A stretch of DNA of 64,000 bases, taken from positions 864,001 to 928,000 of the forward strand of contig NZ_CP157522.1 in the NCBI RefSeq assembly GCF_049075655.1, written 5' to 3'. This stretch comes from Methanothermococcus sp. Ax23 (lineage in GTDB: Archaea; AGJL01; Methanococci; Methanococcales; Methanococcaceae). The position numbers were made by a program, and so were the translations under genes. Below are positions 5,125-50,660 of the stretch, one piece after another; within the stretch, counting starts at the first letter, position 1; each line of letters opens with the position of its first letter. The notes beneath the pieces are model-generated. The model ran no database searches. It saw only the letters and a program-made list of their open reading frames with translations, and was not told the DNA's origin.

Positions 5125-5921
5125 GTTCCAAAACGAACGAAGTGAGTTTTGGACTTTTGATGCAACTTTTTTTTAAAAGTTGCGTGGGAAACAGCAGGAA
5201 TTGATGGATAGGAAAAGTAATATTCCTAGAATTTAGGTTCCAAAACGAACGAAGTGAGTTTTGGACTTTTGATGCAACTTTTTTTTAAAAGTTGCGTGGG
5301 AAACAGCAGGAATTGATGGATAGGAAAAGTAATATTCCTAGAATTTAGGTTCCAAAACGAACGAAGTGAGTTTTGGACTTTTGATGCAACTTTTTTTTAA
5401 AAGTTGCGTGGGAAACAGCAGGAATTGATGGATAGGAAAAGTAATATTCCTAGAATTTAGGTTCCAAAACGAACGAAGTGAGTTTTGGACTTTTGATGCA
5501 ACTTTTTTTTAAAAGTTGCGTGGGAAACAGCAGGAATTGATGGATAGGAAAAGTAATATTCCTAGAATTTAGGTTCCAAAACGAACGAAGTGAGTTTTGG
5601 ACTTTTGATGCAACTTTTTTTTAAAAGTTGCGTGGGAAACAGCAGGAATTGATGGATAGGAAAAGTAATATTCCTAGAATTTAGGTTCCAAAACGAACGA
5701 AGTGAGTTTTGGACTTTTGATGCAACTTTTTTTTAAAAGTTGCGTGGGAAACAGCAGGAATTGATGGATAGGAAAAGTAATATTCCTAGAATTTAGGTTC
5801 CAAAACGAACGAAGTGAGTTTTGGACTTTTGATGCAACTTTTTTTTAAAAGTTGCGTGGGAAACAGCAGGAATTGATGGATAGGAAAAGTAATATTCCTA
5901 GAATTTAGGTTCCAAAACGAA
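5077..5921 (+). repeat. Perfect tandem array of a 112-bp unit (7 full copies + 61-bp partial); unit = last 48 bp of nrdD + 64-bp double hairpin
   Basis: AGCAGGAATT recurs at 5081, 5193, 5305, 5417, 5529, 5641, 5753, 5865 (period 112); copies look identical including the T8 tract. Confidence 0.97.
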
Positions 5922-5960
5922 TGAATCGGGACTTAATTTTTTATAATTTTTTTATTTTAC

Positions 5961-6329
5961 GATAAACCGCCGAGAAAGCCAACGATTTTAATCGTTATAC
6001 AAAACATAGTTTTGTAAAATCTCTTATGAGATTGGATTAGAGGCGGACATTATAATTAGTCAGTAGTAAAACATAAATATTTGAAGTTTCATAGTGAATA
6101 ATGCTACCAGTCCAAGTATCTATGGGTAGGGTTAGTAAAAACTCTACCGCTGGTAGTGGTTGGAAGTGCATAGCGTAGCCCTGAACCCATTAATGGGTAG
6201 GGGTAGTGGGCTTGGCCACCCTTGTAGGGTTAAACCCTGCTAAAATTAGACGAAATCACTTCATGATTTCGTTGCTCGCTTACTACCGTAAGCGAGAACC
6301 CCACGACTTCAGTCGTGGGAGTAGGTCAG
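5961..6329 (+). mobile_element. Non-autonomous IS200/IS605 derivative (MITE/PATE-like) of the element at 29023-30541
   Basis: Begins GATAAACCGCCGAGAA after TTTAC; ends CCCACGACTTCAGTCGTGGGAGTAGGTCAG; both ends match 29023-30541 and 46031-46354. Confidence 0.9.
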
Positions 6330-6361
6330 AGATCAAGTTTTTTAACATGTATATTATTGAA

Positions 6362-8005
6362 TTATTTTTGTTGTCTATCTCTCAGTATATCTTCAATAAG
6401 AGATTTTATCATAATTTCATGGGATAATTTATACACTTCCGCTTCATTTTTATTATATATTTCAACAATATTCAATAATTCATTGGATAATGGAGTTTCC
6501 ATGCAGGAGTCCTTAGGTAGAATATATACTTTTTTACCATCTTCTAGTTCAACTTCAACGCACTCTGATTTCAAAGCTACAATTACAGGGGGTCCGTCAT
6601 ATCCTTCTATTTTTATTTCAGGTCTTTTAATACCATCTACATTACTATTTTGGATAAATTCTTTCTTTTTTTCATCAATTAGACTTAATATATCAAGTAT
6701 GTTCATGTTTTTATTGTGGTTGGATGGATTTAATTTTTTGATTTCAGCATATAATCCATCTAATAGTTCGGATGGATAATATTCTATAACTTCTTTTAGA
6801 AAACGCATATTATTTGCATCATTTAGGTTGCGCACCGCATTTAAAATCACATTTAATACTTTTTTATCGATATATCGACCTTTTATTAATGCCAATGTAG
6901 CTTCATGACATAGCTCGGAATTGTTTAATTTTTCTTTAACTAAATCTAAACACTTTGTAAGATATTTTTGATTATATAGTCCCAAGTTTCCAATAATTCT
7001 CATGGCATTTTTAACAACCCAATTATCATTATCATTTAGTAGATGGCAGATTTTGTCTGAAATGAGTATTGCAGACGGATTAACCATTGATAAATTATGA
7101 AGTAAATACATTGCTGATTTTTTGACATCATCATTGTTTAGGAGCTCATCCAGTTTTAAACCTTCAAACTTTTTAGGCTCTAAATAACATAATCTTCCCA
7201 ATGACAGTAAAGAATATGACTTTAACATATCGTCATTTGAATTTAGATTATTTATTAAAGGACCTATTGAGTCTTTAAAGTATTCTGTATTTTTTTTGCT
7301 TAGTTTCCATATTGCATATGCACAATATTTTCGGAGCTCTAAACTTCCATTTAGATTTTTTATAATGTTGTATGCAATTTCTTTATTGAGGTTTATGTCT
7401 TCAATGTTCCCCAATATTTTAAGAACGTTGATTTTTATAACGTCGCTATCATCATCAAGAAATTTTAATATCTCATTTAAATAGTTTTTTACGATATTTG
7501 GCTGCACTTCACTTATGTTTTTAATAATTTCGACTAGTAGATATTTGTTTGTTATTTTTTTTATGGTATAATCTATTAATTTTGATTTATTTTTACACTG
7601 CGGGTTTAAAGTAATTTTTGTAATTGAATATGCTGCTGAGCACACCACCCCAGGATTAGGATCTTCCAATTTGCACAGAATATTTTTGATATAATTTTTC
7701 ACCATGTCGAATTTTATAAATCCGATATTTCCAATAATATCCAAGGTATTTTTCCTAATTCTCCAATCTTTATCATCTAATAATACAATTATATCTGGCA
7801 TGATTTCTTTGAGAATTTGTGGATTTGATATTGAAATTAATGATAGAGAGTTGAGTAATGATAATTTTACTTTGAAATCTCCACCAATGACTGCTGCTTT
7901 AAATTTTGATATTGAATGGTGCATAGTTAGATCCGTAAGAAAATTAGAATTTTGGCTGATCGGATGTTCAAATCGTTCCTGGTCGTTAAGTAATTTTTTC
8001 ATCAT
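6362..8005 (-). CDS. HEAT-repeat protein, divergent from archaellum operon
   Basis: Repeated LLDDKDWRIRKNTLDIIGNI / LEDPNPGVVCSAAYSI / LLNDNDNWVVKNAMRIIGNL HEAT units. Confidence 0.85.
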   Translation of the reverse strand: MMKKLLNDQERFEHPISQNSNFLTDLTMHHSISKFKAAVIGGDFKVKLSLLNSLSLISISNPQILKEIMPDIIVLLDDKDWRIRKNTLDIIGNIGFIKFDMVKNYIKNILCKLEDPNPGVVCSAAYSITKITLNPQCKNKSKLIDYTIKKITNKYLLVEIIKNISEVQPNIVKNYLNEILKFLDDDSDVIKINVLKILGNIEDINLNKEIAYNIIKNLNGSLELRKYCAYAIWKLSKKNTEYFKDSIGPLINNLNSNDDMLKSYSLLSLGRLCYLEPKKFEGLKLDELLNNDDVKKSAMYLLHNLSMVNPSAILISDKICHLLNDNDNWVVKNAMRIIGNLGLYNQKYLTKCLDLVKEKLNNSELCHEATLALIKGRYIDKKVLNVILNAVRNLNDANNMRFLKEVIEYYPSELLDGLYAEIKKLNPSNHNKNMNILDILSLIDEKKKEFIQNSNVDGIKRPEIKIEGYDGPPVIVALKSECVEVELEDGKKVYILPKDSCMETPLSNELLNIVEIYNKNEAEVYKLSHEIMIKSLIEDILRDRQQK

Positions 8006-8096
8006 AATGCCGCCCACTTAACTTTTTAAATTATAATTTTTAAAACTTTATCCCTTTAAAAAATAATGCACTCAATAATATATTAATATTAAAGGG

Positions 8097-8157
8097 TATG
8101 TCAATTTACAGGTTTTTATGTAGGTATGTCTTAATTTAAAAAACTTTATTTTACCTA
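8097..8157. promoter_or_regulatory. Candidate EarA boxes (TACATA consensus) upstream of flaB1
   Basis: TATGTA 8117-8122 is a perfect reverse-complement match; 1-mismatch TATGTC at 8097 and 8125, TACCTA at 8152. EarA/TACATA regulation is known from the M. maripaludis fla promoter. Confidence 0.5.
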
Positions 8158-8351
8158 CACAAAGAGCTGCAAAACCGCATGCAGTAAAGGATACAAAAAA
8201 AGCTTTTATTTAATGAAATAAACATAATATAGTGAAATAATTAAAATGAGGTGAGAGCAAAATATCCATACTATCGATATGGAATATCGAAATCAGAATT
8301 GATTGCCAAGAGCCTGCGACAATGAAATGACAAATACAGGAGGGAGATATT

Positions 8352-9344
8352 ATGAAAATAAAAGTACTTGAATTTTTAAAGAACAAAAAAGGTGCCATGG
8401 GAATTGGAACTTTAATAATATTCATTGCTATGGTATTAGTTGCAGCAGTTGCAGCAAGCGTATTGATTAATACAAGTGGATTCTTACAACAAAAAGCATC
8501 ATCCACAGGTAAAGAAAGTACAGAACAAGTTGCTAGTGGATTGTTGTGCAGTGGAGTAAGCGGACATATTTTTAAATACGACAATAAATACTACGATTTA
8601 GATAAAATGGTAATGTATATATCACCAAACGCTGGAAGTGCTCCAATTGACTTAAAACAGGCTAAATTATTCTTAACATACGATGGTCAAAGCGTAGTAT
8701 TGAAGTATGGAGGTAAAATATCTGCTACGGATGGAAGCCAGGATGTATTCAATTTAAAACATGATATTGTATTTAACACATCAGACTACAGTGGAATAAC
8801 TGCTACATTAATAGACAACGGTGTAGATAGTAAATATATTGTATTAGAGGCTAGTGATAATAAATCAATAGCATTATTGAAAAGTTTGTGGAATGGTGAA
8901 GCTATAACTAAGTTAGAGTATAATGATGGTTCTTCCACAACAACAGCGACTGCTCCTTCTGTTAATTCAACAGGTGTTTATGACGCAGATGCTGGAACCT
9001 ATACTGTAACTATAACAACAGGTACTGCATCAACAGGTACTGCATCATCAACACCATTAACCTGGGTATATATTAGTGACGATGATGCTATCTGGGGAGG
9101 AGCAAACGACAAACAGTTCTTAGTAGCTCCATTACAAGACAACGACGGTTCAGTAACAAGTGCTGGAGTTATCAACAAAGGAGATATAGTAGCTATATTG
9201 GTAAATTCACAGGCAGCATTTAATGCAGAAATTCCTGAAAGACAAGCTATATCAGGTAAGTTGCAGCCAGAGTTCGGAGCTCCTGCGGTTGTTGATTTCA
9301 CAACACCAGTTGCATACACCAAAGAAGTTATGGAATTACAATAA
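8352..9344 (+). CDS. flaB1: Archaellin (long form)
   Basis: Class III signal peptide KKG|[29 protein letters not shown]; C-terminal PEFGAP..ELQ. Confidence 0.95.
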
Positions 9345-9375
9345 TTACCTAAATACCTTTTAGGAGGGAGATATT

Positions 9376-10038
9376 ATGAAAATAAAAATACTTGAATTCT
9401 TAAAGAACAAAAAAGGTGCCATGGGAATTGGAACTTTAATAGTATTCATTGCTATGGTATTAGTTGCAGCAGTTGCAGCAAGCGTATTAATTAACACAAG
9501 TGGATTCTTACAACAAAAAGCGTCAGCCACAGGTAAGCAAAGCACAGAACAAGTAGCTAGTGGTATACAGGTATTACAAGTTATGGGTATGCATAACACA
9601 TCCAACATAAATAAAACTGTAATATATATTTCACCAAACGCTGGAAGTGCTCCAATTGATTTGAGTCAGGCTGTTGTTATGGTAAGTGATGGTTCTACAA
9701 AATTGGTTGCAAAATACAACATATCAAATGCAAATACCACAGATACTCAAATCAAAGATGGAGGTTCAGTATTTGATAGTGGAGTATGGGGTAATATCTC
9801 ATCAACAGAATTTGGTATTATAGTAGTTCAAGATGCAGATGGTTCATGCACTGCTAAAACACCAGTTATCAACAAGGGAGATATTGTAGCAATAGCATTA
9901 AATACCACAGGATTAAAAATGGGTCCAAGGTCAGATATAACAGGTACAATACAGCCAGAGTTCGGAGCTCCTGGTGTGATATCATTCACAACCCCTGCAA
10001 CATACATAAATGGTTCAAGAGTAATACAGCTTCAATAA
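9376..10038 (+). CDS. flaB2: Archaellin
   Basis: Same class III signal and conserved N-terminal helix; 5' ~180 bp nearly identical to flaB1. Confidence 0.95.
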   Translation: MKIKILEFLKNKKGAMGIGTLIVFIAMVLVAAVAASVLINTSGFLQQKASATGKQSTEQVASGIQVLQVMGMHNTSNINKTVIYISPNAGSAPIDLSQAVVMVSDGSTKLVAKYNISNANTTDTQIKDGGSVFDSGVWGNISSTEFGIIVVQDADGSCTAKTPVINKGDIVAIALNTTGLKMGPRSDITGTIQPEFGAPGVISFTTPATYINGSRVIQLQ

Positions 10039-10072
10039 ATTATTAAATTCTCTATTTTTTTGAGGTGAATTT

Positions 10073-10930
10073 ATGTTGGAATTCCTTAAAAATAAAAGGG
10101 GTGCTATTGGTATTGGGACCTTAATTATATTTATTGCCCTAGTATTAGTTGCAGCAGTTGCAGCAGCGGTAATTATAAACACAGCTGGAAAATTACAACA
10201 CAAAGCATCTACTGTTGGTCAGGAAAGCACTAAACAAGTAGCAAGTGGTATTCAGGTTATCAAAGTTGCAGGATATGCAGATGTTAATTCTACGGATTCT
10301 TTTATAGTTATAAACACAACATCCAATGAGACCATAATAAACAACTCTGCATATCGGAATACAGTGGATAGCTCCCAGTATGGGTATATAAAAGGTATGG
10401 CCATATTTGTAGGGCCAAATATTGGCGATGATATAGATTTAACATCTACAATAATTACCGTGTCAAATGAAGATAAAAAGGTATCATTGGTATACTCCGG
10501 CATTATCAAACATGCTGATACAAATGGTACTGAGGATATATTCAAGGGATTGGTTCTTGAAGGGGCTAACGATTCAGTTAATACCACTGTGGTAAATACC
10601 ACTGAAGGAGAACATGTTAATGGAAGCTATATTGTAATCAGAAATTCAAATGAAATTACCGTAGGAAAGGATGGATGGGTATTAAACAACGTGCCTAAAT
10701 TTGGAATAATCGTTTTACAGGATTCTGATAAATCTACATACGGAGCTCACCCTACGGTTAACTATGGGGATAAAGTTGTACTTACAGTAAATACTGGTGC
10801 CATATTTAATCCTGGCGTGGCTACAAGAGATGTAATATCTGGGGAGGTAATCCCAGAATATGGTGCATCAGGAATAATCGAGTTTAGAACACCATCAGTA
10901 TTTGGTGGTAAAGTAGTAGCTCTTCAATAA
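10073..10930 (+). CDS. flaB3: Archaellin, FlaB3 (hook-like) type
   Basis: KRG|[35 protein letters not shown], typical of Methanococcus FlaB3. Confidence 0.9.
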   Translation: MLEFLKNKRGAIGIGTLIIFIALVLVAAVAAAVIINTAGKLQHKASTVGQESTKQVASGIQVIKVAGYADVNSTDSFIVINTTSNETIINNSAYRNTVDSSQYGYIKGMAIFVGPNIGDDIDLTSTIITVSNEDKKVSLVYSGIIKHADTNGTEDIFKGLVLEGANDSVNTTVVNTTEGEHVNGSYIVIRNSNEITVGKDGWVLNNVPKFGIIVLQDSDKSTYGAHPTVNYGDKVVLTVNTGAIFNPGVATRDVISGEVIPEYGASGIIEFRTPSVFGGKVVALQ

Positions 10931-10941
10931 TGGGTGAAAAA

Positions 10942-11498
10942 ATGCCAAACATATCTGAAATAATTGACGAAATAAAAAAAAAATAGCATTTGGTAAAAAT
11001 AAAGGAGGAGGTAGTGAAGCGGAAGGTCTTGATGATGAATTCATGCTTGATGAAGATGACATGCCTGAATCAGGGGATGAATTAGCTGCTGCAAATGAGG
11101 AACTTCTTGCTAAAATTGGAGAGCTTGAATCAAGATTTCCAAAAATAGAAATGATGATTACAAATCTAAGGAAGGAAAATGAAACTCTAAGAGATAATAT
11201 CAATAAAATAAATGAGAACTTTCAAGACATAATGGCACTCTACGAAGTGGTCTCAAATCAAGTAAATCCATTTATAGGGATTTCAAAAATTACTGCAACC
11301 AGCATGGAAAAAATGGAAAGATTAGAATATGAAGCAAACGCCCTTAGAAAAAAAGTTGATGAGTTACAAAGGGATGTCGTAATTCTTGCGGACATATATC
11401 TAAAACAGCACGATATCGATTTAGATGGTGTCATCAATGATATACTTGCAGAAGAAGAAATCTCCAAAGTAATATCAGGAGAGGATTCAAATGGTTAG
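10942..11498 (+). pseudogene. flaC: Archaellum accessory protein FlaC/ArlC, frameshifted at A10 tract 10974-10983 (or homopolymer sequencing error)
   Basis: GGTGA RBS + ATG 10942 gives MPNISEIIDEIKKK* (TAG 10984); one extra A joins it to IAFGKNKGGGSEAEG... continuous with ORF 11043-11498 (LYEVVSNQVNPF FlaC motif). Confidence 0.85.
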
Positions 11499-12492
11499 TG
11501 AAACAGAATTGTATTCTTCCACAATGGAAGATTATTTAACTGAGGATGAATTGGAGGAATATCTAGAGAATTTAAAAACTAAAATTCCTTCATTTATTGT
11601 TGAGCTGTTAAAAAATAATTTGAAAAACAGAAAATTAACAAAAAACCAATTAGATAGGATAGTGAATAGGGTCACTGACCTTTATTTGGGTAAAAAACCA
11701 GAGGATAAAAAAGCAGAAGAATTAACCGCTAAAATCAATGATTTGAGTAATAAATTGGATGCACTGATGAAAGTTGCGGCAATATCTTCCGCAACAAAGG
11801 TATCTGAGGATATTAAAAGAGAATTATCTAGTTTAGAAGAAGATGAAAAGGTGGAGTCGGATAAACCGGAAGGTTTAGTAGAAATCAATGAAAATGCAGA
11901 CAATGCAGACATAATGGAAGAAGAAAAGGAAGAAAGCGAAGTAATTACAGAAGAGTTGGATGTGGAAGAACACAAACCTGAAGAATTGAAAACCCTGGAG
12001 AAGAAAATCGAGAAAAAAGAGGAAGAACCTATTGTGGATGAAATAGAAACTGAAAATTCAAAAAATGTTCCGATTATTGAAGAGGAGGTCATTGATATGC
12101 CAACCGATTTAACAGGAGTGCATGATAAAAAGTATAATCTTGAAGAATTACCTGAGGATACCCTATCCACTATGTTAGTCTTTAAATGGCTTGAATTTTT
12201 AATAAGTAGAGTTGGATTGAGTAATTTAATTGATATTTTAGATTATTATTATAATTTGGGGTGGATATCTGAAAAGGTAGTTAATAGATTGATAAAAATA
12301 TCAAAAAATATGAAATATCTCAATGAAGAATTCAGGAAGCCCATGGATAAGATGATATCAGAGGACCATATAGTTTCCTTACTTTATATTGAAAAATTAG
12401 CAGGTAGGCCAATACCTGTGGATGAATTAGAAAGTATGGATAGGGAAATAAACAGAATAAGGAAATGGGCAGAAGAATTGCAAAGTATATAA
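11491..12492 (+). CDS. flaD: Archaellum accessory protein FlaD/ArlD
   Basis: C-terminal FKWLEFL..ILDYYYNLGWIS..DHIVSLLYIE domain; operon position. Confidence 0.9.
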   Translation: MVSETELYSSTMEDYLTEDELEEYLENLKTKIPSFIVELLKNNLKNRKLTKNQLDRIVNRVTDLYLGKKPEDKKAEELTAKINDLSNKLDALMKVAAISSATKVSEDIKRELSSLEEDEKVESDKPEGLVEINENADNADIMEEEKEESEVITEELDVEEHKPEELKTLEKKIEKKEEEPIVDEIETENSKNVPIIEEEVIDMPTDLTGVHDKKYNLEELPEDTLSTMLVFKWLEFLISRVGLSNLIDILDYYYNLGWISEKVVNRLIKISKNMKYLNEEFRKPMDKMISEDHIVSLLYIEKLAGRPIPVDELESMDREINRIRKWAEELQSI

Positions 12493-12522
12493 ATTATTAA
12501 GACATTGCAAGGAGGGATTATT

Positions 12523-12927
12523 ATGGATACATCAACATTATCTTCAATACTGTTTGAAGCACATAAACCAGCCAAATTGGAAAAAATTCCAGAAGATCCA
12601 ATGTCAATAATATTCACTTTCAAATGGTTGGAATATTTGTCAGAAAGAGTAGGTTATTCAAATATTGCTAATACATTGGAATTCTATTATAATTTAGGCT
12701 GGTTATCTGATAAGGCAGTATTGGATTTATTAAAATACCTGAAAGGAATCAAACCAGGAGCAGAAATAGACGAACCTTCTGGCAATCTTACAATTGCTGA
12801 CCACCTGGTTTCATTATTATTTATAGAAAGATTAAATGGTAAAAAAATTTCCAGTGAAGTGCTTGATAGGATAGAATGGGAAATAAGGAGAATAAAAAAG
12901 GGGGTTGAACAATACTATGGGGTTTAG
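12523..12927 (+). CDS. flaE: Archaellum accessory protein FlaE/ArlE
   Basis: FKWLEYL..LEFYYNLGWLS..DHLVSLLFIE; GGAGG RBS before ATG 12523. Confidence 0.9.
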   Translation: MDTSTLSSILFEAHKPAKLEKIPEDPMSIIFTFKWLEYLSERVGYSNIANTLEFYYNLGWLSDKAVLDLLKYLKGIKPGAEIDEPSGNLTIADHLVSLLFIERLNGKKISSEVLDRIEWEIRRIKKGVEQYYGV

Positions 12928-13324
12928 TTCAACTGCTGGTTTGATAATTATATTATCAACAGTATTGGTTTGTTCTATATACATATATAGTTCAGTGGAT
13001 TTAAATACTGTTAAGATAAATAACGCATATTCTGAGTATATAAATCATTTAAACAATAAAGCAAATGAAAAATTGACAATAGTATCTGCTGTAAATTCAA
13101 GCGATACCATAAATATAACACTTTTAAATAATGGCTCATTGACTCATGAACCCCATAAATGGACAGTAATGTATAATGGCACACCAAAAAACTTTGAAGT
13201 TAATCCGGATGTGACGTATTTAACTCCACTGAATAATATCACAATTATTATAAATGCCACTGCTCCAGCAAGAATATGTGTGGTTTCGGAGTATGGGAAT
13301 AAGTATTATTGTAATTTAAATTAG
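12917..13324 (+). CDS. flaF: Archaellum accessory protein FlaF/ArlF
   Basis: MGFSS N-terminus, single TM, NNGS, VVSEYGNKY; operon position. Confidence 0.85.
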   Translation: MGFSSTAGLIIILSTVLVCSIYIYSSVDLNTVKINNAYSEYINHLNNKANEKLTIVSAVNSSDTINITLLNNGSLTHEPHKWTVMYNGTPKNFEVNPDVTYLTPLNNITIIINATAPARICVVSEYGNKYYCNLN

Positions 13325-13406
13325 GTTACTACAAAATTATAAATTATAATAAGAATACTTTTAACCTTTTTATGTTTGTTATTGTTGATTATTATTAGGT
13401 GATTTA

Positions 13407-13859: not shown

Positions 13860-13880
13860 CGGCATATATCTGGTGATTTT

Positions 13881-16271: not shown

Positions 16272-16289
16272 GGTAATTGAGGTGATTTT

Positions 16290-28819: not shown

Positions 28820-29022
28820 GGTATCACGTTTTAGGTCATGATGTAATAGCTGATTACCATATAATTATAAATTCGTTTGTAAGAGAATTCGATACTCTAA
28901 TGTGGGTATTATCAAAAAATTATGGACTTGTTCATCAAATAGTATAATAGTCAGTTGTAATGTCATGACCACGTTTTATTTTGATAGTAAGTTGATTAGT
29001 TTTATATTATAGTATAACCATA

Positions 29023-30541
29023 CTGACATACTCCCACGACTGAAGTCGTGGGGTTCTCGCTTACGGTAGTAAGCGAGCAACGAAATCACGAAGTGATTTC
29101 GTCTAATTTTAGTAGGGTCTAACCCTACATGGGTTGCCAAGCCCACTACCCCTATCTCCGTTTAGGAGATTTAGGGCTACGCTACATGAAAATACTTTTT
29201 TCAAAATATTTAAAGCAGCATTCACATCAGCATTCAAAACCATACCACACTCACTACAAACATATAATCCTCTAAACTTCCTATTACTTTTCCTAACAAC
29301 TCCACAATTACTGCAAGTTTGAGAAGTATAAGCTTCATTAACCTGTTCTACTGTTATTCCCTTTTCCTCTGCCTTATACATTATCATACTTACTAACCTA
29401 CCAAAAGGTATCCTATGCAGTTTCTCATTGTTCTTTCTACCAATATCAATACTTGAAATGCCTTTGTTTAACTTGCCGATTACAATCCTTGAAACTTTGT
29501 TATCCACTGCAAAATCAACAATCATCTTACTAACCTTATGCAAATAATCCTTAGTATAATTCTTTTCTCTTACTGTTAAGCATGATAATCGTTTATTATT
29601 CTTTAACTGTTTCCGTGTTAGTTTGGGCTGTAGTTTTCCCTTTGTTTTAGCAAACCATCGGAATTTAGAAATTAACTGTCTCCCATCGTAGATTACTGCA
29701 CTGCCCGTATTGGTTACTACTGTTGCTAAATTCTTAATTCCTAAATCAATACTTAGTATATTACCTTCTTTGATAGGTTCTTGAATTACTGGTTTCTTAT
29801 GGATTAAGTGAAGTATGTAGTAGGTTATCCCATAGATGGTCTGCGGAACTATCTCAACTTCTTTAACCTGCGTGGTATCAAGCGGTAGAGTTTTCGATAA
29901 ATCTACCCATAAGTACTTGGACTTGATAACATGCTTTTCTTTGAGATAGTTTTTAGTTTGTTTTGATAGGGATAACCTTAACTTATTGCCTATGATTTTG
30001 AAACCTTGTTTCTTCCATTTTACTGGAAAGTGTCCATCTTTTGGTTGGTATCGTGGTCTTTTAGTGTGCTGTTTGAAGTAGTTTTGCCATGCTATCGCTT
30101 GCGTAGCAAGCGAGCAACGAAAACCGAAGGTTTTCGTCTAATTGAGAGTTTTTGACATACTGCCTGTGCTGATTGTGAGTGTAGGTTTTTAAACCAGAAG
30201 TTATCCTTCATTTGAACATCTATTTTATTTGGTTCAATGTTTTGTAGTATTACTTCATAATTGGATGTATTCCAGAGTTTTGATGCTGAGTAGGTTAAAT
30301 GGTTTATGATTGTTAATTGTTCATTGGTTAGTTTTCTTGTTAGGTTTATTGTCAGCACTCTGGTTACTTGCATGGAATTCACCAAATTTATATATATGCC
30401 ATTATTCTAACTACACTCATATATTATATAGGGAGCATATAAAAAAATGATGTCCGCCTCTCATCCAATCTCGTAAGAGATTTTACAAAACCTTGTTTTG
30501 TATAACGATTAAAATCGTTGGAACCTTCTCGGCGGTTTATC
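29023..30541 (-). mobile_element. IS200/IS605-family tnpB-only (IS1341-type) element inserted 3' of TTTAC
   Basis: Left end GATAAACCGCCGAGAA at 30541 preceded by TTTAC (minus strand); right-end hairpin CCCACGACTTCAGTCGTGGG ending GTCAG at 29023; tnpB inside. Confidence 0.9.
29109..30373 (-). pseudogene. tnpB: TnpB interrupted by a 47-bp insertion (30095-30141); 405 aa if the insert is removed
   Basis: Removing the insert joins ...QAVCQKLS-IAWQNYFK...SIDLGIKN...CSNCG..CSECG..NADVNAA with no stop (hand translation). Confidence 0.9.
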
Positions 30542-30661
30542 GTAAATATATAATTAAGTATTACTTTAACGAAAATAAAAATTATAATAAAATAAAATAA
30601 ATATAAAACAAAAAAACAAAAATGTGAGATAATATAAGGGAATGTAAAGAATGGTGAAAAT

Positions 30662-41525: not shown

Positions 41526-41766
41526 TTTTTCACCTTTTATTATGGCAATTAGTAATTAATTAGTTAAATCATATTAAATTAAATCATATTGAAATATAAA
41601 ATAACATGTATCTATAATATAGCAAATATAAAATAATAATTAAAATTAAAATAAATAATAATAAATATAAAATATAATAATGTAATAATTATTTGAAACA
41701 ATAGGTTATTTACAACGTTAAAATATTTTTAATACCTATATCGATATAATTAATCTTTTTGGTGAA

Positions 41767-42939: not shown

Positions 42940-42985
42940 ATAAGGAAGAATAATAAAAAAATGATTTTTGATATTTTTATTTATT

Positions 42986-43678
42986 TTATAGATATTTTTT
43001 TAGCACCAAATAAACCACTACCAAAAACCATAAACCTATAATAATTAATGCCTCTTTTTTGCGGAATTTATAATTTGATGGATACAATGCATTACATCCC
43101 GCAGGAGTTAAACTATCTCCAACTATGTGGGATAAATACCCTAACCCTATTGGGACGATATAATGATACATTCCTGAGAAATTTACAAGAGGACTTTGAA
43201 TCTCTGAAATAATTAAATACATTCCCATCCAAACAAAAACACATATTGCTATTACCTTACCAAGAAGTTTATCATTTGTAACCATTATTAAGGCAATTAT
43301 TCCTGCAATTATAGGGGAAAGCACGGACATTTTATAAGTTAAAAATCCCAATATGGGGGAAATTACTATCAAACTTAAAAATGTGTGGGTGATGCCCCTG
43401 TGATTTGCAAAATGTGGAATTAAATAAATCAATAACACAGCAACTGCCCCAACAAAAAGACCTAAATCAAAATATTGAGGTTTGAATAGATATATCAAAG
43501 TGTCTATTAAAACAAGAGCTCCTGCAAAATATATTCCTCTCTCCACAATTTCCGACTTTACATTATGGTCCAAGTCTGGATACAGAGCTCCGGCAACAAG
43601 CAAAAAAATCTGTTCAGGGGACGATAAAAAAGGCAGTCCCATTATTATTCCAAATATTGTATGTCCCTTCCAATTCAT
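42986..43678 (-). CDS. Membrane-bound metal-dependent hydrolase (YdjM family)
   Basis: H at N-terminus, PDLDH, HRGITH, SHIVGD. Confidence 0.82.
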   Translation of the reverse strand: MNWKGHTIFGIIMGLPFLSSPEQIFLLVAGALYPDLDHNVKSEIVERGIYFAGALVLIDTLIYLFKPQYFDLGLFVGAVAVLLIYLIPHFANHRGITHTFLSLIVISPILGFLTYKMSVLSPIIAGIIALIMVTNDKLLGKVIAICVFVWMGMYLIISEIQSPLVNFSGMYHYIVPIGLGYLSHIVGDSLTPAGCNALYPSNYKFRKKEALIIIGLWFLVVVYLVLKKYL

Positions 43679-43806
43679 AATAACACTCTTCTTTTTTATG
43701 TTGGGTTTTAACTCATAATTTTTATACTTTTTAAACTATATGCTATATTATAATTTAAATAATGTATATTTTAAACATGTAATATAATAGTAGATAGGGT
43801 GATAGT

Positions 43807-44154
43807 TTGGATAAATTGATAATTGCAAGAATGCAGAAATTCACTGTTGAAGATTTAATGAGATGTATATTGGGACTTCAAGAGATAGAAATTAGAATAT
43901 ATCTTGAGCTTACGGAGTTAAAAGAAGCTTCCGTATATGATATAGCAAATAAAATTGGCAAAGACAGAACAACTGTTCAAAAGGCACTTAGAAGTTTAAT
44001 AAATTGCGGATTGGTTGAGAGAGAAAAAGTTACGGAAACGGTGGGATACAAATATATATACCGACCTGTTGAGTTCGAAAAAGTTAAGGAACTTATGGAA
44101 CGACTTTTGGATGAATGGTATATTGGTGTGAAAGAGTGGTTAAATAGGAATTAA
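43807..44154 (+). CDS. TrmB-like winged-HTH transcriptional regulator
   Basis: IANKIGKDRTTVQKALRSLINCGLVER..GYKYIY. Confidence 0.82.
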   Translation: MDKLIIARMQKFTVEDLMRCILGLQEIEIRIYLELTELKEASVYDIANKIGKDRTTVQKALRSLINCGLVEREKVTETVGYKYIYRPVEFEKVKELMERLLDEWYIGVKEWLNRN

Positions 44155-44173
44155 TGTATTTTTTGGTGAAACA

Positions 44174-46000
44174 ATGGACATGCTTGATATAGCCATAAAT
44201 GTGGCGGAGAATATTGAAAAAGGGGTGAAACCTCTAATTGGATGGGAAAAATCCGACGAAATTGTAAAAATTGGGGCAGATGGAACACCAACTAAAAGAA
44301 TAGATATGATAGCAGAAAACATAGCCATAAATTCCATTGAAAAATATTGCAGTGCTATATTGATAAGTGAAGAAATAGGTTTTAAAAAGATAGGCAATGG
44401 GATTCCCGAATATGTCATTGTTTTAGACCCTATTGATGGAACATATAATGCTCTAAATGATATTCCGATATATTCGGTTTCAATAGCCATGGGGAGTTTA
44501 AAATCTAAATTGGGAAATCAGAAAAAGCCCATAGATGATGATTCTTATGAGGACATAATTAATAATATGACCATTAATGATTTGGAGGTTGGGGTGGTAA
44601 AGAATATAGCAACAGGGGATATTTATTGTGCAAAAACTAATGAAGGGGCATATATAATGGAAAACCCTCACCGAGAAAAAAGAAAAATAATGGTATCAAA
44701 TACAAAAAATTTGAAAGATGCTTCTGTTGGGGTTTTTGCATATGGCTTAACAACCAATACTCTGGATTTTATAAAAGATAGAATGGTAAAAAGAATAAGG
44801 ATTTTCGGTTCCGCAGCATTGGAAATGTGCTATGTTGCTAGGGGAGCTCTGGATGCATTCATAAATGTAAATAAAACTACAAGATTGTGTGATATTGCAG
44901 GAGGTTATGTGGTGCTTAGAGAATCTGGGGGAATAATTACAGATAATGATGGAAAACCAATAAATATGGGTTTAAATGTCTATGAAAAAACATCCCTAAT
45001 TTGTTCAAATAATGCACTCCATAAAAAATTTGTTGGAATATTTGGGAATAAGTGGATGTTGAAACCGACAAAATTCGGCATTATTTCAAGGATTGACAGG
45101 GAGGATGCTATCAACCTAGTTCTTGAAGTAATTAATTATTTGGATTCAAAAAATATAAAATATGCATTAGAACCTGAAATCTGTAAGATTATTAATAATT
45201 GTAAGAATTTTAATGATAAATGTGTCAAATGTGAATCTATGGATGACTTAAATGATATATCGCATATTATATCAATTGGTGGCGATGGGACGGTATTAAG
45301 AGCTTCGAGAATCATAAATGGGAATGAGATACCGATAATTCCCATAAATATGGGCACAGTTGGTTTTTTAACGGAGTTTAATAAAAACAGAGTATTTGAG
45401 GCCATAGATAAGGTTATAAATGGAAACTATGAAATTGAAAGAAGGACAAAGTGTGCAGGATTAATTAAACATGGGGGTTATTCCGTAAATGCAGATGCAG
45501 ATTCGTCCAATTATGCTAATCCCCAAAATTCCCAAAAAATACTTCCAGACGCTTTAAACGAGGTAGTTGTAGTCACAAAAAGTCCTGCAAAGATGCTTCA
45601 CTTTGAAGTATATGTGAATGGAAACTTTGTAGAGGATGTTAGGGCAGACGGTCTTATTATATCAACTCCAACCGGTTCAACAGCATACTCATTAAGTGCA
45701 GGAGGCCCGATTTTAGAGCCTGCGGTGGATGCCTTTGTAATTGTTCCAATATGCCCATTTAAATTGTTTTCCCGTCCAATAGTTGTTGATGGAAACTCTG
45801 AAATTAAAATAAAAGTATTAAAAAAATCAACCTTGGTTGTTGTGGATGGAAATATTGAAGGTGAGGCTAAAAAAGGCGATGAAATAATTTTAAGAAAATC
45901 TAATTCTTATTCATACTTTGTTAAAGGATATAACTTCTACAATAAATTGAGAAAATTAAGCGTTGTTGGCGAGGGTAATAAAAAAGGCGATAGCGATTAA
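44174..46000 (+). CDS. Bifunctional NADP phosphatase/NAD kinase (MJ0917-like)
   Basis: N-terminal IMPase (SEE, LDPIDGT) fused to NAD kinase (GGDGT, LNE, STPTGSTAYSLSAGG). Confidence 0.93.
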   Translation: MDMLDIAINVAENIEKGVKPLIGWEKSDEIVKIGADGTPTKRIDMIAENIAINSIEKYCSAILISEEIGFKKIGNGIPEYVIVLDPIDGTYNALNDIPIYSVSIAMGSLKSKLGNQKKPIDDDSYEDIINNMTINDLEVGVVKNIATGDIYCAKTNEGAYIMENPHREKRKIMVSNTKNLKDASVGVFAYGLTTNTLDFIKDRMVKRIRIFGSAALEMCYVARGALDAFINVNKTTRLCDIAGGYVVLRESGGIITDNDGKPINMGLNVYEKTSLICSNNALHKKFVGIFGNKWMLKPTKFGIISRIDREDAINLVLEVINYLDSKNIKYALEPEICKIINNCKNFNDKCVKCESMDDLNDISHIISIGGDGTVLRASRIINGNEIPIIPINMGTVGFLTEFNKNRVFEAIDKVINGNYEIERRTKCAGLIKHGGYSVNADADSSNYANPQNSQKILPDALNEVVVVTKSPAKMLHFEVYVNGNFVEDVRADGLIISTPTGSTAYSLSAGGPILEPAVDAFVIVPICPFKLFSRPIVVDGNSEIKIKVLKKSTLVVVDGNIEGEAKKGDEIILRKSNSYSYFVKGYNFYNKLRKLSVVGEGNKKGDSD

Positions 46001-46030
46001 GATTGGAATAAATGCCTATAATATAAAAAA

Positions 46031-46354
46031 CTGACCTACTCCCACGACTAAAGTCGTGGGGTTCTTTAGTAGGGTTTAACCCTACACGGGTGGCCAAGCC
46101 CACTACCCCTATCCCCGTTTAGGAGATTCAGGGCTACCTTTTGAACATCCAACCACTACCAGCGGTAGAGTTTTCACTAACCCTACCCATAGATACTTGT
46201 ACTGGTAGCGTTACTTACTATTAATCGTCTCATATTTATATTTTACTACTTACTAGCCGATATAATGTCCGCCTCTCATCCAATCTCGTAAGAGATTTTA
46301 CAAAACTATGTTTTGTATAACGATTAAAATCGTTGGCTTTCTCGGCGGTTTATC
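46031..46354 (-). mobile_element. Second non-autonomous IS200/IS605 derivative (MITE/PATE-like), inserted 3' of TTTAC
   Basis: Collinear with 5961-6329 in reverse orientation; lacks the 51-bp right-end insert. Confidence 0.9.
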
Positions 46355-46369
46355 GTAAATATATTGATA

Positions 46370-46462
46370 TCGCTTGCGGTAGCAAGCGACCTAAAACCTA
46401 CGGTTTTAAGTTTTCCCCACTTTCGTTCGGAAAAGCAACGAAATGCGAAGCATTTCGTCTAA
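46370..46462. repeat. Nested double-hairpin micro-element directly after the pyrE stop codon
   Basis: TCGCTTGC-GGTA-GCAAGCGA ... GCAACGAAATGC-GAA-GCATTTCGTCTAA matches the inserts at 6245, 29057 and 30095, with an extra 45 bp (46390-46434) between the two hairpins. Confidence 0.85.
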
Positions 46463-47053
46463 TTAATCTTTCAATTCATCAACATTTACAAGAGGAATCA
46501 ATTCAACATCCATATTTTTTAAATTTTCCTTTGCACCTTCCATTCTATCTACTATTACAAATACCTTTTCGACAACTCCTCCGTTTTTTCTAATTTCATC
46601 TACGGCTTTTGCAACACTTCCACCTGTGGTTGTAACGTCTTCCACAACAATTACTTTATCGTTTTCATTCAATGTTCCTTCAATTTTGTTTTTAGTTCCG
46701 TAATCTTTTGCCTTTTTTCTTATAATAATTAAATCTTTTTCTGTTTCAATAGATACTGCTGTGGCTATTGGAACTGAGCCTAATTCAACGCCTGCAATTT
46801 TTAAGTTTTCGTTTAATTCATCGTTTAAATAGGATTTTATCAATTGTGCAGCAGTTTTTAAAACCCTTGGGTTTGTAGTGGCTTTTTTAATATCCACATA
46901 ATAATTGCTTTTTTTTCCAGAAGCCAGAATGAATTCGCCAAATTTTACACATTGGACTTCTTTTAAAAGGGATATTAATTTGTTTTTTAATTGGAGCGAT
47001 AGTGTAGGGTCAGATTTCGTAGGGGTCTCATTCAATTGGTTTTTGCTGTTCAA
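46463..47053 (-). CDS. pyrE: Orotate phosphoribosyltransferase
   Basis: FILASGKKS.YYVD, IRKKAKDYG, VVEDVTTTGGS. Confidence 0.95.
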   Translation of the reverse strand: MNSKNQLNETPTKSDPTLSLQLKNKLISLLKEVQCVKFGEFILASGKKSNYYVDIKKATTNPRVLKTAAQLIKSYLNDELNENLKIAGVELGSVPIATAVSIETEKDLIIIRKKAKDYGTKNKIEGTLNENDKVIVVEDVTTTGGSVAKAVDEIRKNGGVVEKVFVIVDRMEGAKENLKNMDVELIPLVNVDELKD

Positions 47054-47157
47054 TATATCACCACAATCTTGTAAAGTATTTATATAATCATAAGAAATAT
47101 TTTACAAATATATGGTGAAGTATATTCTTAAAATATTATAAATATTTGGGTGATTGA

Positions 47158-48474
47158 ATGAAGATGAAATTCTTGATATTGATAGGTTTTTGTATGGCAA
47201 TATTTTCGAGCTCCGCCATGGGTTTAGACAATAATCCATTAGTCGTAGTGAATAAAGACAGTCCCGATGCACCATATGCTAAACTGATTATGGATGAGCT
47301 CTATCTCCATAAAAAAATTCAAGTTGTTGATGATAAAATAACAATTAATGAGAACATACATTACAACATCCCTGCAAATAATAGCTTTGAAATTGAAAAT
47401 AGTGGGGAGAGGTTGTATGTAGAATTTAAAAGAGATAAGGATACCATTAATGGTATTAAATACCATAAGGTTGAATATATTGAAAAATTAGATGGTAATG
47501 ATGAAATACTTTTTTTAGGTAAATCTTATAAGATACTCAAACATACAAATGATGAAATAGTCCTTACTGATGAAGTTAAAAACATATCTACAAATAATTC
47601 ATTTGAATACAAGAACTATAAGGTTATTTTAAAGGCAGTATCTTTTGATGGCAGTGAATTATTATTGGATATTTTAAAGGACGGCAATCCATTGGAAAAT
47701 AATGTAAAAATAAATAAAGGGGAGTTAGTGGATATTGCGAATTCAGACATATCAATATATTATGAAAATTTGAGCGAGCATGGAAAGGGCCACATTTTTT
47801 CGTTCAAAATATATAATACGGTTAAATTGATAGATAATGAAGATTTTAAATTGAATAATAGTTTTGAAGTTAATATTGACAGTAATGGAATAATTTTGAA
47901 TTATAAAAATCCGGAAAATCTTCAAAAGGCCTTTAATATATTTAATTACAGTATAAAATTAGTAAATACTACTGATGGATTAACTTACTTCGATGTATTT
48001 TATAAGAATAATTACGAAATAAATAAAGAAGATATTGATGAAACAAAATATCTTGGAGATAATATATTTGCGGTTAGAAAAGGCGATAAACTGTATTTGT
48101 ATAAAGATGGAAGGGAATACACTAATATAACAGATTATTTTGTTCCAGACGTTGTTTTAGATAGCAATATCTTGAATACAGACAGCGATTTGATACTAAT
48201 TGGGGGTCCGGTATCCAACAACATAACAAAAAAGATAGAAAATAATCTAGAAATACCTATAACCAACGAAAATCCTGGAAAAAATAGGGGAGTTATTCAG
48301 ATTATAAAAAACCCATACAATCCAGATTATAAGATAATGGTTATTGCAGGTTCCGATAGAAACGGAACAAAAGCCTGTGTTTTAGCATTATTAAATGGCA
48401 TGTATAAAAATGAAGAAACCATGATTGTTGAATTGGAGAATAATGAGAATGTTAAAGTTATAAAAAAGTTATAA
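47158..48474 (+). CDS. S-layer-domain secreted protein
   Basis: Signal peptide; C-terminal LILIGGPVSN...VIAGSDRNGT typical of Methanococcales/Thermococcales S-layer domains. Confidence 0.75.
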   Translation: MKMKFLILIGFCMAIFSSSAMGLDNNPLVVVNKDSPDAPYAKLIMDELYLHKKIQVVDDKITINENIHYNIPANNSFEIENSGERLYVEFKRDKDTINGIKYHKVEYIEKLDGNDEILFLGKSYKILKHTNDEIVLTDEVKNISTNNSFEYKNYKVILKAVSFDGSELLLDILKDGNPLENNVKINKGELVDIANSDISIYYENLSEHGKGHIFSFKIYNTVKLIDNEDFKLNNSFEVNIDSNGIILNYKNPENLQKAFNIFNYSIKLVNTTDGLTYFDVFYKNNYEINKEDIDETKYLGDNIFAVRKGDKLYLYKDGREYTNITDYFVPDVVLDSNILNTDSDLILIGGPVSNNITKKIENNLEIPITNENPGKNRGVIQIIKNPYNPDYKIMVIAGSDRNGTKACVLALLNGMYKNEETMIVELENNENVKVIKKL

Positions 48475-48509
48475 AATAAGATATAATAAAAAATACAAAA
48501 AACGTTAAT

Positions 48510-49163
48510 TTATAAATCAATCGGAGCTCCGATTTCAGGAGTAATTACTTCAACACCAATATCTTTTACTTTTTTTACTAAATCTGAGATATCTTGCTCA
48601 ATTGCCGGGAATGTATTGTAGTGCATAGGAATAAATATTTTTGGCTTTAAATATTCAATTGCTTTTAATGCTTCTTCTGGCCCCATGGTGTATCTTCCAC
48701 CCACTGGAAGTAATGCGATATCTGGACTGTATAGTTCAGCTATAAGTTTCATATCACCAAATAATCCCGTATCTCCTGCATGATATACTCTGTCATTTAT
48801 AATATATCCTGATGCTATTCCACCAGGGGTATTTACATCGATATCTGAGGAATGTTCTGCCTTAACCATTGTTAATTTTGAGTTGTTTAGGGCAATAGTT
48901 CCCCCAATGTTCATACCTTCTGCATTTACTCCTTTATTAGATAGATATACAGATATTTCATGATTTGAAACTACCGGAATATTATATTTTTTTGAGAGCT
49001 CCGCCGCATTTCCCAAGTGGTCAGCATGTCCATGGGTTACTGCTATAACTTCCACATTCTTCATAATCTCATCATAAGGGAGATTACATAATGGATTTGG
49101 AACAAACGGGTCTATTAAAACATTATCAACCTTAAAGCAGGAATGCCCATACCAGACTATCAT
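48510..49163 (-). CDS. UPF0173 MBL-fold metal-dependent hydrolase
   Basis: WYGHS, THGHADH, YHAGDT, PVGGRYTM, PMHY. Confidence 0.88.
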   Translation of the reverse strand: MIVWYGHSCFKVDNVLIDPFVPNPLCNLPYDEIMKNVEVIAVTHGHADHLGNAAELSKKYNIPVVSNHEISVYLSNKGVNAEGMNIGGTIALNNSKLTMVKAEHSSDIDVNTPGGIASGYIINDRVYHAGDTGLFGDMKLIAELYSPDIALLPVGGRYTMGPEEALKAIEYLKPKIFIPMHYNTFPAIEQDISDLVKKVKDIGVEVITPEIGAPIDL

Positions 49164-49227
49164 AATATCACCAAAATAGGTCTTATCATTTTATCAATGT
49201 TATTAATGATATTTAACATTAAGTATT

Positions 49228-50660
49228 GTGAACTACCCCTCCTTACGAGAGGGGCTTCCTGCATCATCCATCTCCCAACGGAGCATGTCAGATCTCAAAA
49301 TTTCCTTACGGAAATTTATACGATTTAACAAATCAAAGATTTGTTAAACAGGCTCACCCCCGTGTTCCACAGGTGCATAATAGTATTACAACCCAATCAG
49401 ATTCTGTTTATTTAAAGCAAACTTTTTAATATTAACCGCCGCATTAACATCCCTATCATGCTCAGTATTGCAGACAGGACACTTCCAAACTCTATTCTTT
49501 AAGTCCAAATTACCATTATAATACCCACAAACAGAGCATATTTTACTGGAAGGTTCAAACCTACCTATTTTTATTATGGTCTTTCCAAACTTCTCAGCTT
49601 TATACATTAGTTTAGATACAAAAGAAGACCATGCTACATCAAGAATTGATTGGGCTAAATTGTGATTCTTAACCATTCCTTTAACATTCAAATCTTCCAA
49701 CGCTATGGCTTGGTTTTCCGTGCAAATCAAAGATTTGCAGGACACAAAAATCTTCGATTTTTGCTGTCGCCAATTAATTTAAAAGAGAGTTTGTGTTGGA
49801 AGTCGTTCCTTTGATTAACAATTTTTTCATGAAGTTTAGCAAGTTTTAGTCTTGCTTTCTCTCGGTTTTTAGAACCTTTTTGTTTTCTTGAAAGTCTTTT
49901 TTGTAATACTTTTAACCTCTGCAAACTCTTTTTGAGATGCTTTGGATTATCTATTTTCTCACCGTTTGATAATATGCAAAAGTGAGTAATACCTAAATCG
50001 ATACCTATTGTGGTTTTTTCATCAAATGGTTGCTTGTTTGGAATTGGTTTTCCATCCTCTACCATAATACTTATGAAGTATTTACCTGTTGGAGTTTTTG
50101 AGATAGTTACTGTTCTCATTTCTCCTTCGAATTTCCTGTGGAGTTTAGCTTTAACCCATCCTATTTTGGGTAGAAATACTTTGTTATTCTCCCAGTCCAC
50201 TTTATAATGTTGCGGAATTTGGAAGGATTGTCTTGGATGTTTTTTAGTTTTGAACTTTGGGAACGATGCTTTTTTTCTGAAAAAGTTGGTAAATGCCCTC
50301 TCCAAGTTCAGAGTTGCCCCCTGTAATGATTGGGAGTTTATTTCTTTTAACCATGGGAATTCTTTTTTTAGTGTTTTGATTGTTTTATTTAATTGGAATC
50401 GTGATATTGCCTTTCCTGTTTGTTCATAAGTTTGGATTTTGAGGTTTAATGCCCAGTTATAGATGAATCTACATGCTCCAATGTGCTTGTGGATTAGTGT
50501 TCTTTGTCCTTTATTGGGGTATAATCTGAACTTGTAAGCTGTTAGCATTTTACCACGATATATTATTTATGCTAAGTTATTTTTATGCCATAGTATTTAT
50601 ATTTTTTTGGTCGGCTATCATCTCCACCCTAACGGATGGAGTCTTCTCGCCGACATTTAG
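49228..50660 (-). mobile_element. Second IS200/IS605-family tnpB-only element, inserted 3' of TTTAT, just downstream of tRNA-Arg
   Basis: Left-end hairpins GTCGGC..CTCCATCC-GTTA-GGGTGGAG..GCCGAC; right-end hairpin CCCCTC..GAGGGG ending GTTCAC; tnpB inside. Confidence 0.85.
49386..50548 (-). pseudogene. tnpB: TnpB interrupted by a 50-bp insertion (49717-49766); 370 aa with D-E-D triad if the insert is removed
   Basis: AYKFRLYP, GIDLG, then LIG|ENQAIALEDL after removing the insert, CSVCG..CPVC, HDRDVNAA. Confidence 0.92.

Follow-up and report, generated by a model that had tools for sequence, protein, structure and literature searches.

Hairpin units in the window

The stretch of DNA analysed here (the window, 64,000 nucleotides) comprises bases 864001-928000 of the 1.66 Mb chromosome (C1; 32% G+C) of Methanothermococcus sp. 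Ax23, whose genome (G000) has a second contig (C2) of 7.7 kb. It holds four elements derived from IS200/IS605-type insertion sequences (ISs), which we call IS A to IS D, a tandem array at the end of nrdD and, in and beside the ISs, short units built from two adjacent hairpins. These hairpin units are our subject. An initial annotation, made from the sequence alone, had placed all of them in one class of minimal mobile elements acting as parasites of, or brakes on, TnpB transposons. The joint reading that we prefer, by little more than an even judgement, is that at least two mechanistically different kinds of non-coding hairpin-pair element are present, which enter new sites and at times disappear from them again, and of which the class 1 type hitch-hikes on ISs, together with the mechanisms inferred below.

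All unit positions that had been claimed are borne out by the sequence, and each unit folds, as single-stranded DNA, into two adjacent hairpins. Fold z-scores range from -4.3 to -7.4 for five units and are weaker for a nested 45 bp unit (-1.7). Perfect hairpins with stems of at least 8 bp number 723 in the genome compared to 479 in a Markov simulation; the excess is wholly intergenic (442 versus 140 simulated, with 281 versus 339 in coding DNA), and the commonest loops of these hairpins are TTC (51) and GAA (49). The hairpins of the units have a conserved loop, GAGCGATAGCGA. For comparison we used 40 Methanococcales genomes at the level of the order and 13 genomes at that of the genus, the closest being G003 (approximately 90% identical, draft) and G012 (approximately 87%, complete), referred to as sister species. 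Class 1 units were collected with a covariance model (R2), class 2 elements with an nhmmer profile and a second covariance model (R1). In window coordinates, the features are as follows.

5077..5925 (+): tandem array, 7.6 x 112 bp, of class 2 element plus host piece (Tandem Repeats Finder, nhmmer and R1 matches, sequence).
5950..6335 (+): IS A, a short derivative, without tnpB, of an IS200/IS605-type family, holding a 37 bp and a 51 bp unit (blastn to a full-length copy; about 33 related loci).
5997..6033 (+): 37 bp unit of two hairpins, inserted into the 3' arm of the hairpin at the IS left end (copy 431400 and others are empty here; fold z-score -5.4).
6245..6295 (+): class 1 unit of 51 bp, located 3 nt upstream of the right-end hairpin of the IS (R2, 62.4 bits; filled and empty copies).
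29022..30548 (-): IS B, full-length with tnpB, inserted after TTAC (PF07282 match at 29205-29405; absent here in G003 and G012).
29057..29107 (-): class 1 unit, 51 bp, at the same right-end site as 6245 (R2, 62.1 bits).
30095..30141 (-): class 1 unit, 47 bp, at site S1 inside tnpB, adding TAG to the reading frame (R2, 71 bits; 7 of 9 copies filled).
30467..30504 (-): the IS B copy of the 37 bp unit (related loci; self-comparison indels).
46017..46364 (-): IS C, a short IS derivative with a 37 bp unit (46283-46319); its 51 bp right-end site, near 46064, is empty.
46366..46462 (-): composite, a class 1 unit split by a nested 45 bp two-hairpin unit at 46388-46434 (R2 matches at 46411-46462 and 46370-46409).
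49215..50660 (-): IS D, a second IS200/IS605-type element with a broken tnpB (absent here in G012).
49293..49348 (+): unit of 56 bp with two hairpins, close to the IS D right end (partner 438968, the other copy of IS D, is empty here; fold z-score -6.5).
49717..49766 (+): 50 bp two-hairpin unit splitting tnpB of IS D with a frameshift (tblastn).

The units as insertions

Each unit named in the initial annotation is an insertion relative to other copies of its surroundings or to a sister species; the empty alleles by which the annotation had proposed to check its idea exist in both. Nine full-length copies of the IS B family, when aligned, reveal four sites with filled and empty alleles: the 37 bp unit (8 filled, 1 empty), the 47 bp class 1 unit in tnpB (7 and 2), a class 1 unit of 48 bp deeper within tnpB (3 and 6) and, 3 nt ahead of the right-end hairpin, the 51 bp class 1 unit (3 and 6), which is also present in most short copies. 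Within the window, this right-end site is filled at 6245 and 29057 and empty in the IS copy at 46017-46364. The 37 bp unit is present at 33 loci in the genome; besides the one full-length copy without it (431400), seven more IS copies are suggested to lack it, their matches ending at IS position 67, and this was confirmed for at least two. The same unit was also seen at C1:77959-78019, 372257-372317 and 1599295-1599355, at the equivalent end-hairpin position of a different IS or MITE family (MITE, miniature transposable element with inverted repeats), the end hairpin of which has the stem CCCACGAT instead of CCAACGAT. In IS D, residues 1-252 and 262-361 of the tblastn homologue flank a gap of 77 nt and lie in frames 1 and 3, giving an excess of 50 nt.

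When the chromosome was compared with itself for indels of 25-160 bp between repeated copies, 90 clusters emerged which, bar two CRISPR arrays, are nearly all hairpin units, a point of some relevance for annotation of this genome. The two arrays, near C1 148 kb and 1164 kb and outside the window, have one common 30 nt repeat and gave spacer-sized indels. The composite at 46366..46462 adjoins the stop codon of the gene at 46463-47053, where G012 has 15 bp, and related composites occur elsewhere in the genome. Two larger composites of 138-144 bp were noted at C1:1587502-1587641 and C1:232360-232505, with at least four nested or adjacent hairpin units; one of them lies in the loop of an IS-end-like hairpin.

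The junctions of the class 1, 37 bp, 50 bp and 56 bp units have an ambiguity of 0-2 nt and no common flanking motif. For these units the earlier description as mobile micro-elements without terminal inverted repeats (TIRs), and with target site duplications of at most 1-2 bp, stands; class 2 has no TIRs either, but its target duplications are longer. The 37, 50 and 56 bp units form small families of their own, similar to class 1 in behaviour, and all four types insert precisely, with neither a duplication nor a common target.

Structure and spread of class 1 units

Class 1 units are 45-53 bp long and begin TTAGACGAAA. An alignment of 17 diverse copies yields a two-hairpin consensus, in which the conserved unpaired motifs are TTAGA, at the start, and TTGC, which separates the hairpins; each hairpin is preceded by a conserved 4 nt motif. 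TIRs are absent, and the ends are flush with the hairpin feet. The paired stem changes that the initial annotation had described are real: among the 17 copies, 10 of 15 predicted pairs show double changes, with zero one-sided changes. Cells are paired in 96.1% of cases versus 82.0% in shuffles, double-change cells number 39 versus 8.9, and none of 500 shuffles reaches the observed covariation. The loop is TTC in most copies and GAA in some, with identical flanks. Full compensation without wobble intermediates, together with these TTC/GAA loop flips, speaks for palindromes at the DNA level and not for an RNA fold under selection. Archaeal bulge-helix-bulge splicing of the units was set aside, as their two ends do not pair together.

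Model R2 finds 81 matches in this genome and between 0 and 48 in other genomes of the order. The distribution is patchy: 23 of the 40 genomes have matches, in both families, including 13 of the 17 genomes of the sister family. We classified the 72 matches with E below 0.001. Of these, 31 are at unique loci, some in host genes. Several class 1 copies lie just past stop codons. Relative to neighbouring genes, either orientation is found, and copies inside host genes are read in one stop-free frame. The gene at genome position 1064104-1064973 has a 16-residue in-frame class 1 insert that is absent in five of five relatives, which suggests recent activity of class 1; the gene at 65262-66836 has another in-frame insert, absent in G003, G010, G004 and G005. 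A thiamine-enzyme-like gene of G012 (L080, G012:C1:1651395-1653098) contains two long, Asn/Lys-rich inserts of low complexity at the same two linker positions as shorter segments in G000, one of which is a class 1 unit. In the reading preferred here, class 1-type units persist where they are harmless, i.e., in intergenic DNA, in IS elements and in frame in host genes.

Could the units instead serve the host as signals in RNA or DNA, for example as terminators or binding sites for proteins, and be maintained by selection? The copies directly past stop codons would fit such a role, as would the stop codon, hairpin and T-run of class 2 and its location after genes. However, units occur in both orientations and inside reading frames, their presence is patchy among close relatives and differs even between species that are approximately 90% identical, and the window has no match to any Rfam family. 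We regard this explanation as very improbable.

It is also unlikely, though less so, that no transposition is involved at all and that the hairpins are palindrome by-products spread by replication template switching and gene conversion. The absence of one-sided stem changes, the flipping loops, the lack of both an enzyme and a target consensus, and the occurrence of different class 2 variants at one orthologous site, which suggests conversion, would all be expected from such a process. By contrast, it does not sit well with the defined ends and TTAGA/TTGC motifs that class 1 retains at more than 30 unrelated loci in two families, nor with insertions that are complete units with an overlap of 0-2 nt at the junctions.

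Class 1 units and TnpB elements

Eight of the window sites lie inside the four IS elements, and the initial annotation had described the units as concentrated in such elements, and inferred that they are parasites of, or brakes on, TnpB transposons. By copies there is indeed an approximately eight-fold enrichment of class 1 in IS DNA, since 41 of the 72 classified matches are IS-borne, but these trace to only seven insertion events that were copied with the IS. Independent events, the counts of which depend on our grouping of copies, amount to approximately 0.16 per kb of IS-derived DNA, taken as about 45 kb (a rough estimate from 21 TnpB matches and about 25 short copies, and to that extent a weak point of our reading), versus approximately 0.12 per kb in 184 kb of unique intergenic DNA. 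Per event, the density in ISs and in neutral DNA is therefore about equal, the "survivorship only" outcome that the annotation had itself named beforehand as refuting. The apparent concentration arose because a few insertions multiplied along with the IS; it is mostly hitch-hiking, with no clear enrichment per event.

The notion of a brake on TnpB has in its favour that tnpB is disrupted by the 47 bp unit and by the 50 bp unit. The open frame of IS copies carrying the former is 341-358 residues, compared to 415-421 in the two copies without it, while the frame stays open across the 48 bp unit (357-358 versus 341-342 residues). In addition, the 51 bp class 1 unit at 6245..6295 is probably within the guide-RNA scaffold region, and the 37 bp unit lies in the left-end hairpin. 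Yet copies with a broken tnpB kept multiplying, making up 7 of the 9 full-length ones. An association across genomes is likewise visible: by our reading of the 40 genomes, 16 have class 1 and TnpB, 16 have neither, five have class 1 only and three TnpB only, and this co-occurrence is inflated by IS-nested copies and shared ancestry, which again tempers our own interpretation. With five genomes that have class 1 but no TnpB, 31 of 72 matches outside IS DNA and some of those in host genes, we give a low probability to a single element class that specifically parasitises or brakes TnpB transposons.

Candidates for the mobilisation of class 1

Class 1 would move in the form of single-stranded hairpin DNA, through cut-and-paste by an enzyme that recognises hairpins and acts in trans. 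The likeliest mover, in our tentative judgement, is a sporadic IS200/IS605 TnpA, the one that must also have spread the resident tnpB-only IS. This IS inserts after TTAC, and sister species lack the elements of 29022-30548, 46017-46364 and 49215-50660 at the corresponding positions; a TnpA source must therefore have existed recently. An unknown enzyme is a somewhat weaker possibility, and spread of class 1 by template switching is improbable.

The initial annotation saw no mobilising enzyme in the window, and this extends to the whole genome: G000 has zero matches to the Y1 transposase (PF01797), and zero to reverse transcriptase (PF00078). In a check for co-occurrence with HUH genes, Y1 TnpA was found in six of the 40 genomes, intact in three, G014, G023 and G038. 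Several observations weigh against our proposal. Y1 TnpA is absent from G000, G037 and G039 despite 44-81 class 1 matches in these genomes, and no mobilising enzyme for the units was identified. Approximately 10 class 1 filled/empty pairs have no 5' target in common; together with the flush ends, this arrangement, as judged from the alignments, does not fit an IS608-type geometry, and it is because of this departure from IS608 rules that we hold the HUH-in-trans model only tentatively. Our host gene map is based on open reading frames, which weakens the reading further. Finally, raw reads (X19) barely covered a 20 kb stretch containing copies of class 1, class 2 and ISs, and no excision or circle molecule was seen there. 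A single joint skipping 47 at an IS copy could stem from another IS copy. Public contig sets (X1-X3) matching the same stretch were low-depth, fragmented and essentially identical to the genome, and a pattern scan of public genome contigs returned 26 stretches, chiefly by chance, four of them Methanococcales loci.

Two other sources were considered. The genome carries two IS607-type serine recombinase genes and three integrase-like matches, but a serine recombinase as class 1 mover was rejected, being absent in G010 (29 matches) and G037 (44 matches). The plasmid C2 was rejected as well: its helicase-like match was weak and fell short of the curated cut-off, and it showed no HUH domain. As for these loci themselves, the two IS607-type copies (C1:46658-48671 and C1:1510565-1512578), both outside the window, are 97% identical and consist of a gene for a 209-residue serine recombinase and, after it, a 438-residue tnpB; in one of them a TAG falls within the recombinase match. 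Contig C2 (L122) is a small second replicon of 7732 bp, with a largest frame of 668 residues that gave the weak helicase match, and no replication-initiator family was recognised on it.

Class 2 elements and their target duplications

Class 2 elements are approximately 63-70 bp long, begin TAGGTTCC, carry a stop codon and have a second hairpin with a T-run. The profile and covariance model place them at about 17 loci plus the array in G000, and matches occur in four of the 13 genus genomes (24 in G000, 18 in G012, 16 in G003 and 3 in G010). In the window, the initial annotation had described an array of a 64 bp unit. An array containing a ~63-70 bp element is present, but its period is 112 bp, not 64, and consists of the class 2 element plus the last 48 bp of nrdD, the stop codon and the bases after it. 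Seven element copies run from 5121-5190, every 112 bp, to 5793-5862, and a degenerate partial copy follows at 5905-5930.

The same combination of element and duplicated host sequence is found throughout. Nearly every class 2 copy is abutted by direct repeats of host sequence, 14-77 bp in length, and 12 of 17 class 2 loci pass a strict flanking-repeat test compared to 17 of 2000 random intergenic positions. These long target duplications set the 64 bp type apart from the other units, and the idea of one shared element class had to be abandoned. At seven loci, ARAGORN places a tRNA gene (Gly, Val, two different Arg, Pro, Ile and Thr) directly upstream of the element, in the same orientation in 7 of 7 cases, and the repeat at tRNA sites always starts at one identical position in the T-loop. 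An eighth locus (L011, C1:303327-303796) has a tRNA-like 3' end (T-arm, acceptor and CCA) upstream and no ARAGORN call; this sequence may be an intron-containing tRNA. The other sites take in the last 20-60 bp of protein genes or the first bases of a gene on the opposite strand. Because insertion duplicates the target segment, the target gene stays whole.

Comparison with the sister species provides empty sites. Site 535969 is empty in G003 and G012, which have a single 22 bp segment, and in G000 this segment is perfectly duplicated. At 827033, G012 is empty and G003 filled, whereas site 155640 is filled in G012 and G003 retains only the first ~20 nt of the element. At nrdD, the G012 orthologue is without an element and G003 has at most a possible degenerate relic. 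Arrays with periods of 112, 132 and 147 bp are present in G012, G003 and G010. Orthologous sites carry different element variants, and these sequence differences suggest that conversion or re-insertion may have taken place.

In our reading, class 2 inserts with a long target duplication of variable length, and the flanking repeats then allow arrays to form and deletions to occur; arrays of gene end plus element could grow, shrink and swap variants. Duplication by slipping back was rejected as a source of the arrays: it predicts an array that ends with the element followed by native downstream sequence, while the arrays end with another host copy. The order host, element, host, native downstream instead implies a staggered or ends-in insertion. 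Immediately before the second repeat, 6-8 nt nearly reproduce the native sequence to the left of the duplicated segment. Older tRNA sites have GTTTGAA before the second repeat compared to GTTCAAA in the gene, and in a fresh G012 array the two are identical.

The variable length of the duplications and the similarity at the junctions make templated copying the favoured route. Short homology would guide copying at the 3' end of the element, and synthesis would return upstream of where it had departed. That class 2 is copied in by a polymerase, via template switching or ends-in recombination, is accordingly a reading we lean towards without much confidence. Two observations speak against it: the freshest insertion, at 535969, has no clear homology at its 5' junction, and the apparent 5' microhomologies at nrdD and at G003 155640 are better read as relics of older elements.

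A dedicated nuclease or integrase offers an alternative route to the same structures. It would nick one strand at a T-loop-like motif and the other at a loosely specified position 14-77 bp downstream, as in staggered transposase- or Cas1-type integration, and the identical T-loop left boundary in seven different tRNA genes, the clean and perfect 22 bp duplication at the fresh site and the constant orientation relative to the tRNA (7 of 7) are what one would expect from it. However, the duplication length varies more than five-fold, unlike that of any ruler-based integrase. Between the repeats there is only the 63-70 bp element, with no gene and no integrase, and the integrase-like genes at genome 286-313 kb adjoin no class 2 copy. 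The sole recombinase beside a copy is an IS607-type bystander. IS607 was rejected as the class 2 source, as the adjacent copy landed between element and second repeat and the second IS607 copy is without an element; the two copies have common sequence only from CCTTCCGAAAC onward. We thus consider a dedicated enzyme rather unlikely, and continue to prefer homology-guided copying for class 2.

Two further features of the setting were noted. The window has two tRNA genes, at 50729-50802 (-) and 61127-61211 (+), the former approximately 70 bp past the left end of IS D. Along the chromosome, GC skew tracks gene orientation and no origin is apparent.

Significance and relation to known systems

Elements this small probe the lower size limit of mobile DNA. 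The units add peptide segments to proteins, break or alter TnpB genes and probably the guide-RNA region, and duplicate gene ends, and are thus a source of steady small structural change in compact archaeal genomes. Class 2 in particular is a tractable case of insertion with a very long and variable target duplication, and Methanococcus species, being amenable to genetics, permit direct tests of the mechanism.

The nearest precedent within the order is the MJRE1-3 palindromic repeats of Methanocaldococcus jannaschii, reportedly described by Suyama, Lathe and Bork in 2005 (FEBS Lett 579:5281) and averaging approximately 100 bp; their abstract is said to mention no filled or empty alleles, IS nesting or long target duplications. 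Like class 1, these repeats are palindromic and mostly extragenic, with some in frame in genes. Compared by description only, they are about twice the size of class 1, and class 1 may overlap them. PMC2229807 mentions the MJRE repeats in one line, and Rickettsia palindromic elements as well. Our literature searches returned no description of the present elements in Methanothermococcus, nor of duplications like those of class 2.

Among bacterial and mobile-element systems, class 1 resembles non-autonomous IS200/IS605 derivatives (PATEs) and REPINs, which Y1 HUH enzymes move, in having no TIRs and no duplication, in the hairpins, which those systems recognise, in the conserved 4 nt motif ahead of each hairpin and in co-occurring with IS200/IS605. 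Hairpins are present at both ends, as in PATEs, though the class 1 ends are flush with the hairpin feet. In contrast to PATEs, class 1 has no conserved target tetranucleotide, and the genome has no Y1 enzyme. Relative to REP/REPIN sequences, there is no RAYT (PF01797 is unmatched), and the class 1 hairpins are two different ones in tandem rather than an inverted pair. Classical MITEs differ from both classes: class 1 has neither TIRs nor a fixed target site duplication, and class 2 has no TIRs and duplications of 14-77 bp.

The palindromic elements of Rickettsia, a bacterium, are 100-150 bp long and are found in frame in protein genes. Class 1 shares with them the in-frame peptide insert, while the sequences are unrelated. 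Elhai et al. in 2008 reportedly described SDR1-8 in Nostoc, repeats of 21-27 nt that form a single hairpin and for which an RNA intermediate was proposed. Likeness to these lies in the size of tens of nucleotides, the compensatory hairpin changes, the nested insertions, including insertions inside minitransposons, and the absence of a known enzyme; the differences are that the SDRs are cyanobacterial and have one hairpin, whereas the present units have two, measure 37-70 bp and occur in a genome without reverse transcriptase. By analogy, class 1 may work like Rickettsia palindromic elements and Nostoc SDRs.

Class 2 recalls the integration of tyrosine-integrase elements into tRNA genes, in that its duplication runs from the T-loop to beyond the tRNA 3' end and leaves the gene whole, but tRNA-gene islands have an integrase-encoding element between the repeats, and class 2 only 63-70 bp. 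Its arrays of repeat and insert are like those made by Cas1-type enzymes (CRISPR, casposons), which, however, produce duplications of fixed length, whereas those of class 2 span 14-77 bp and each site duplicates its own local sequence. The absence of reverse transcriptase in G000 separates the units from SINE-like retroelements (short interspersed nuclear elements), and the class 2 sequence is not part of IS607 termini, as an IS607 end or derivative would be. Class 2 could conceivably be a new kind of prokaryotic micro-element, a proposal we advance as doubtful at this stage: protein-less, inserted by homology-guided copying or by an unknown, uncoupled nicking enzyme at T-loops and gene ends, with duplications of 14-77 bp that seed arrays. 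Together with class 1, it would make the Methanococcales the second lineage, after Nostoc, with actively mobile elements below 70 bp, in this case with neither a reverse transcriptase nor a resident transposase.

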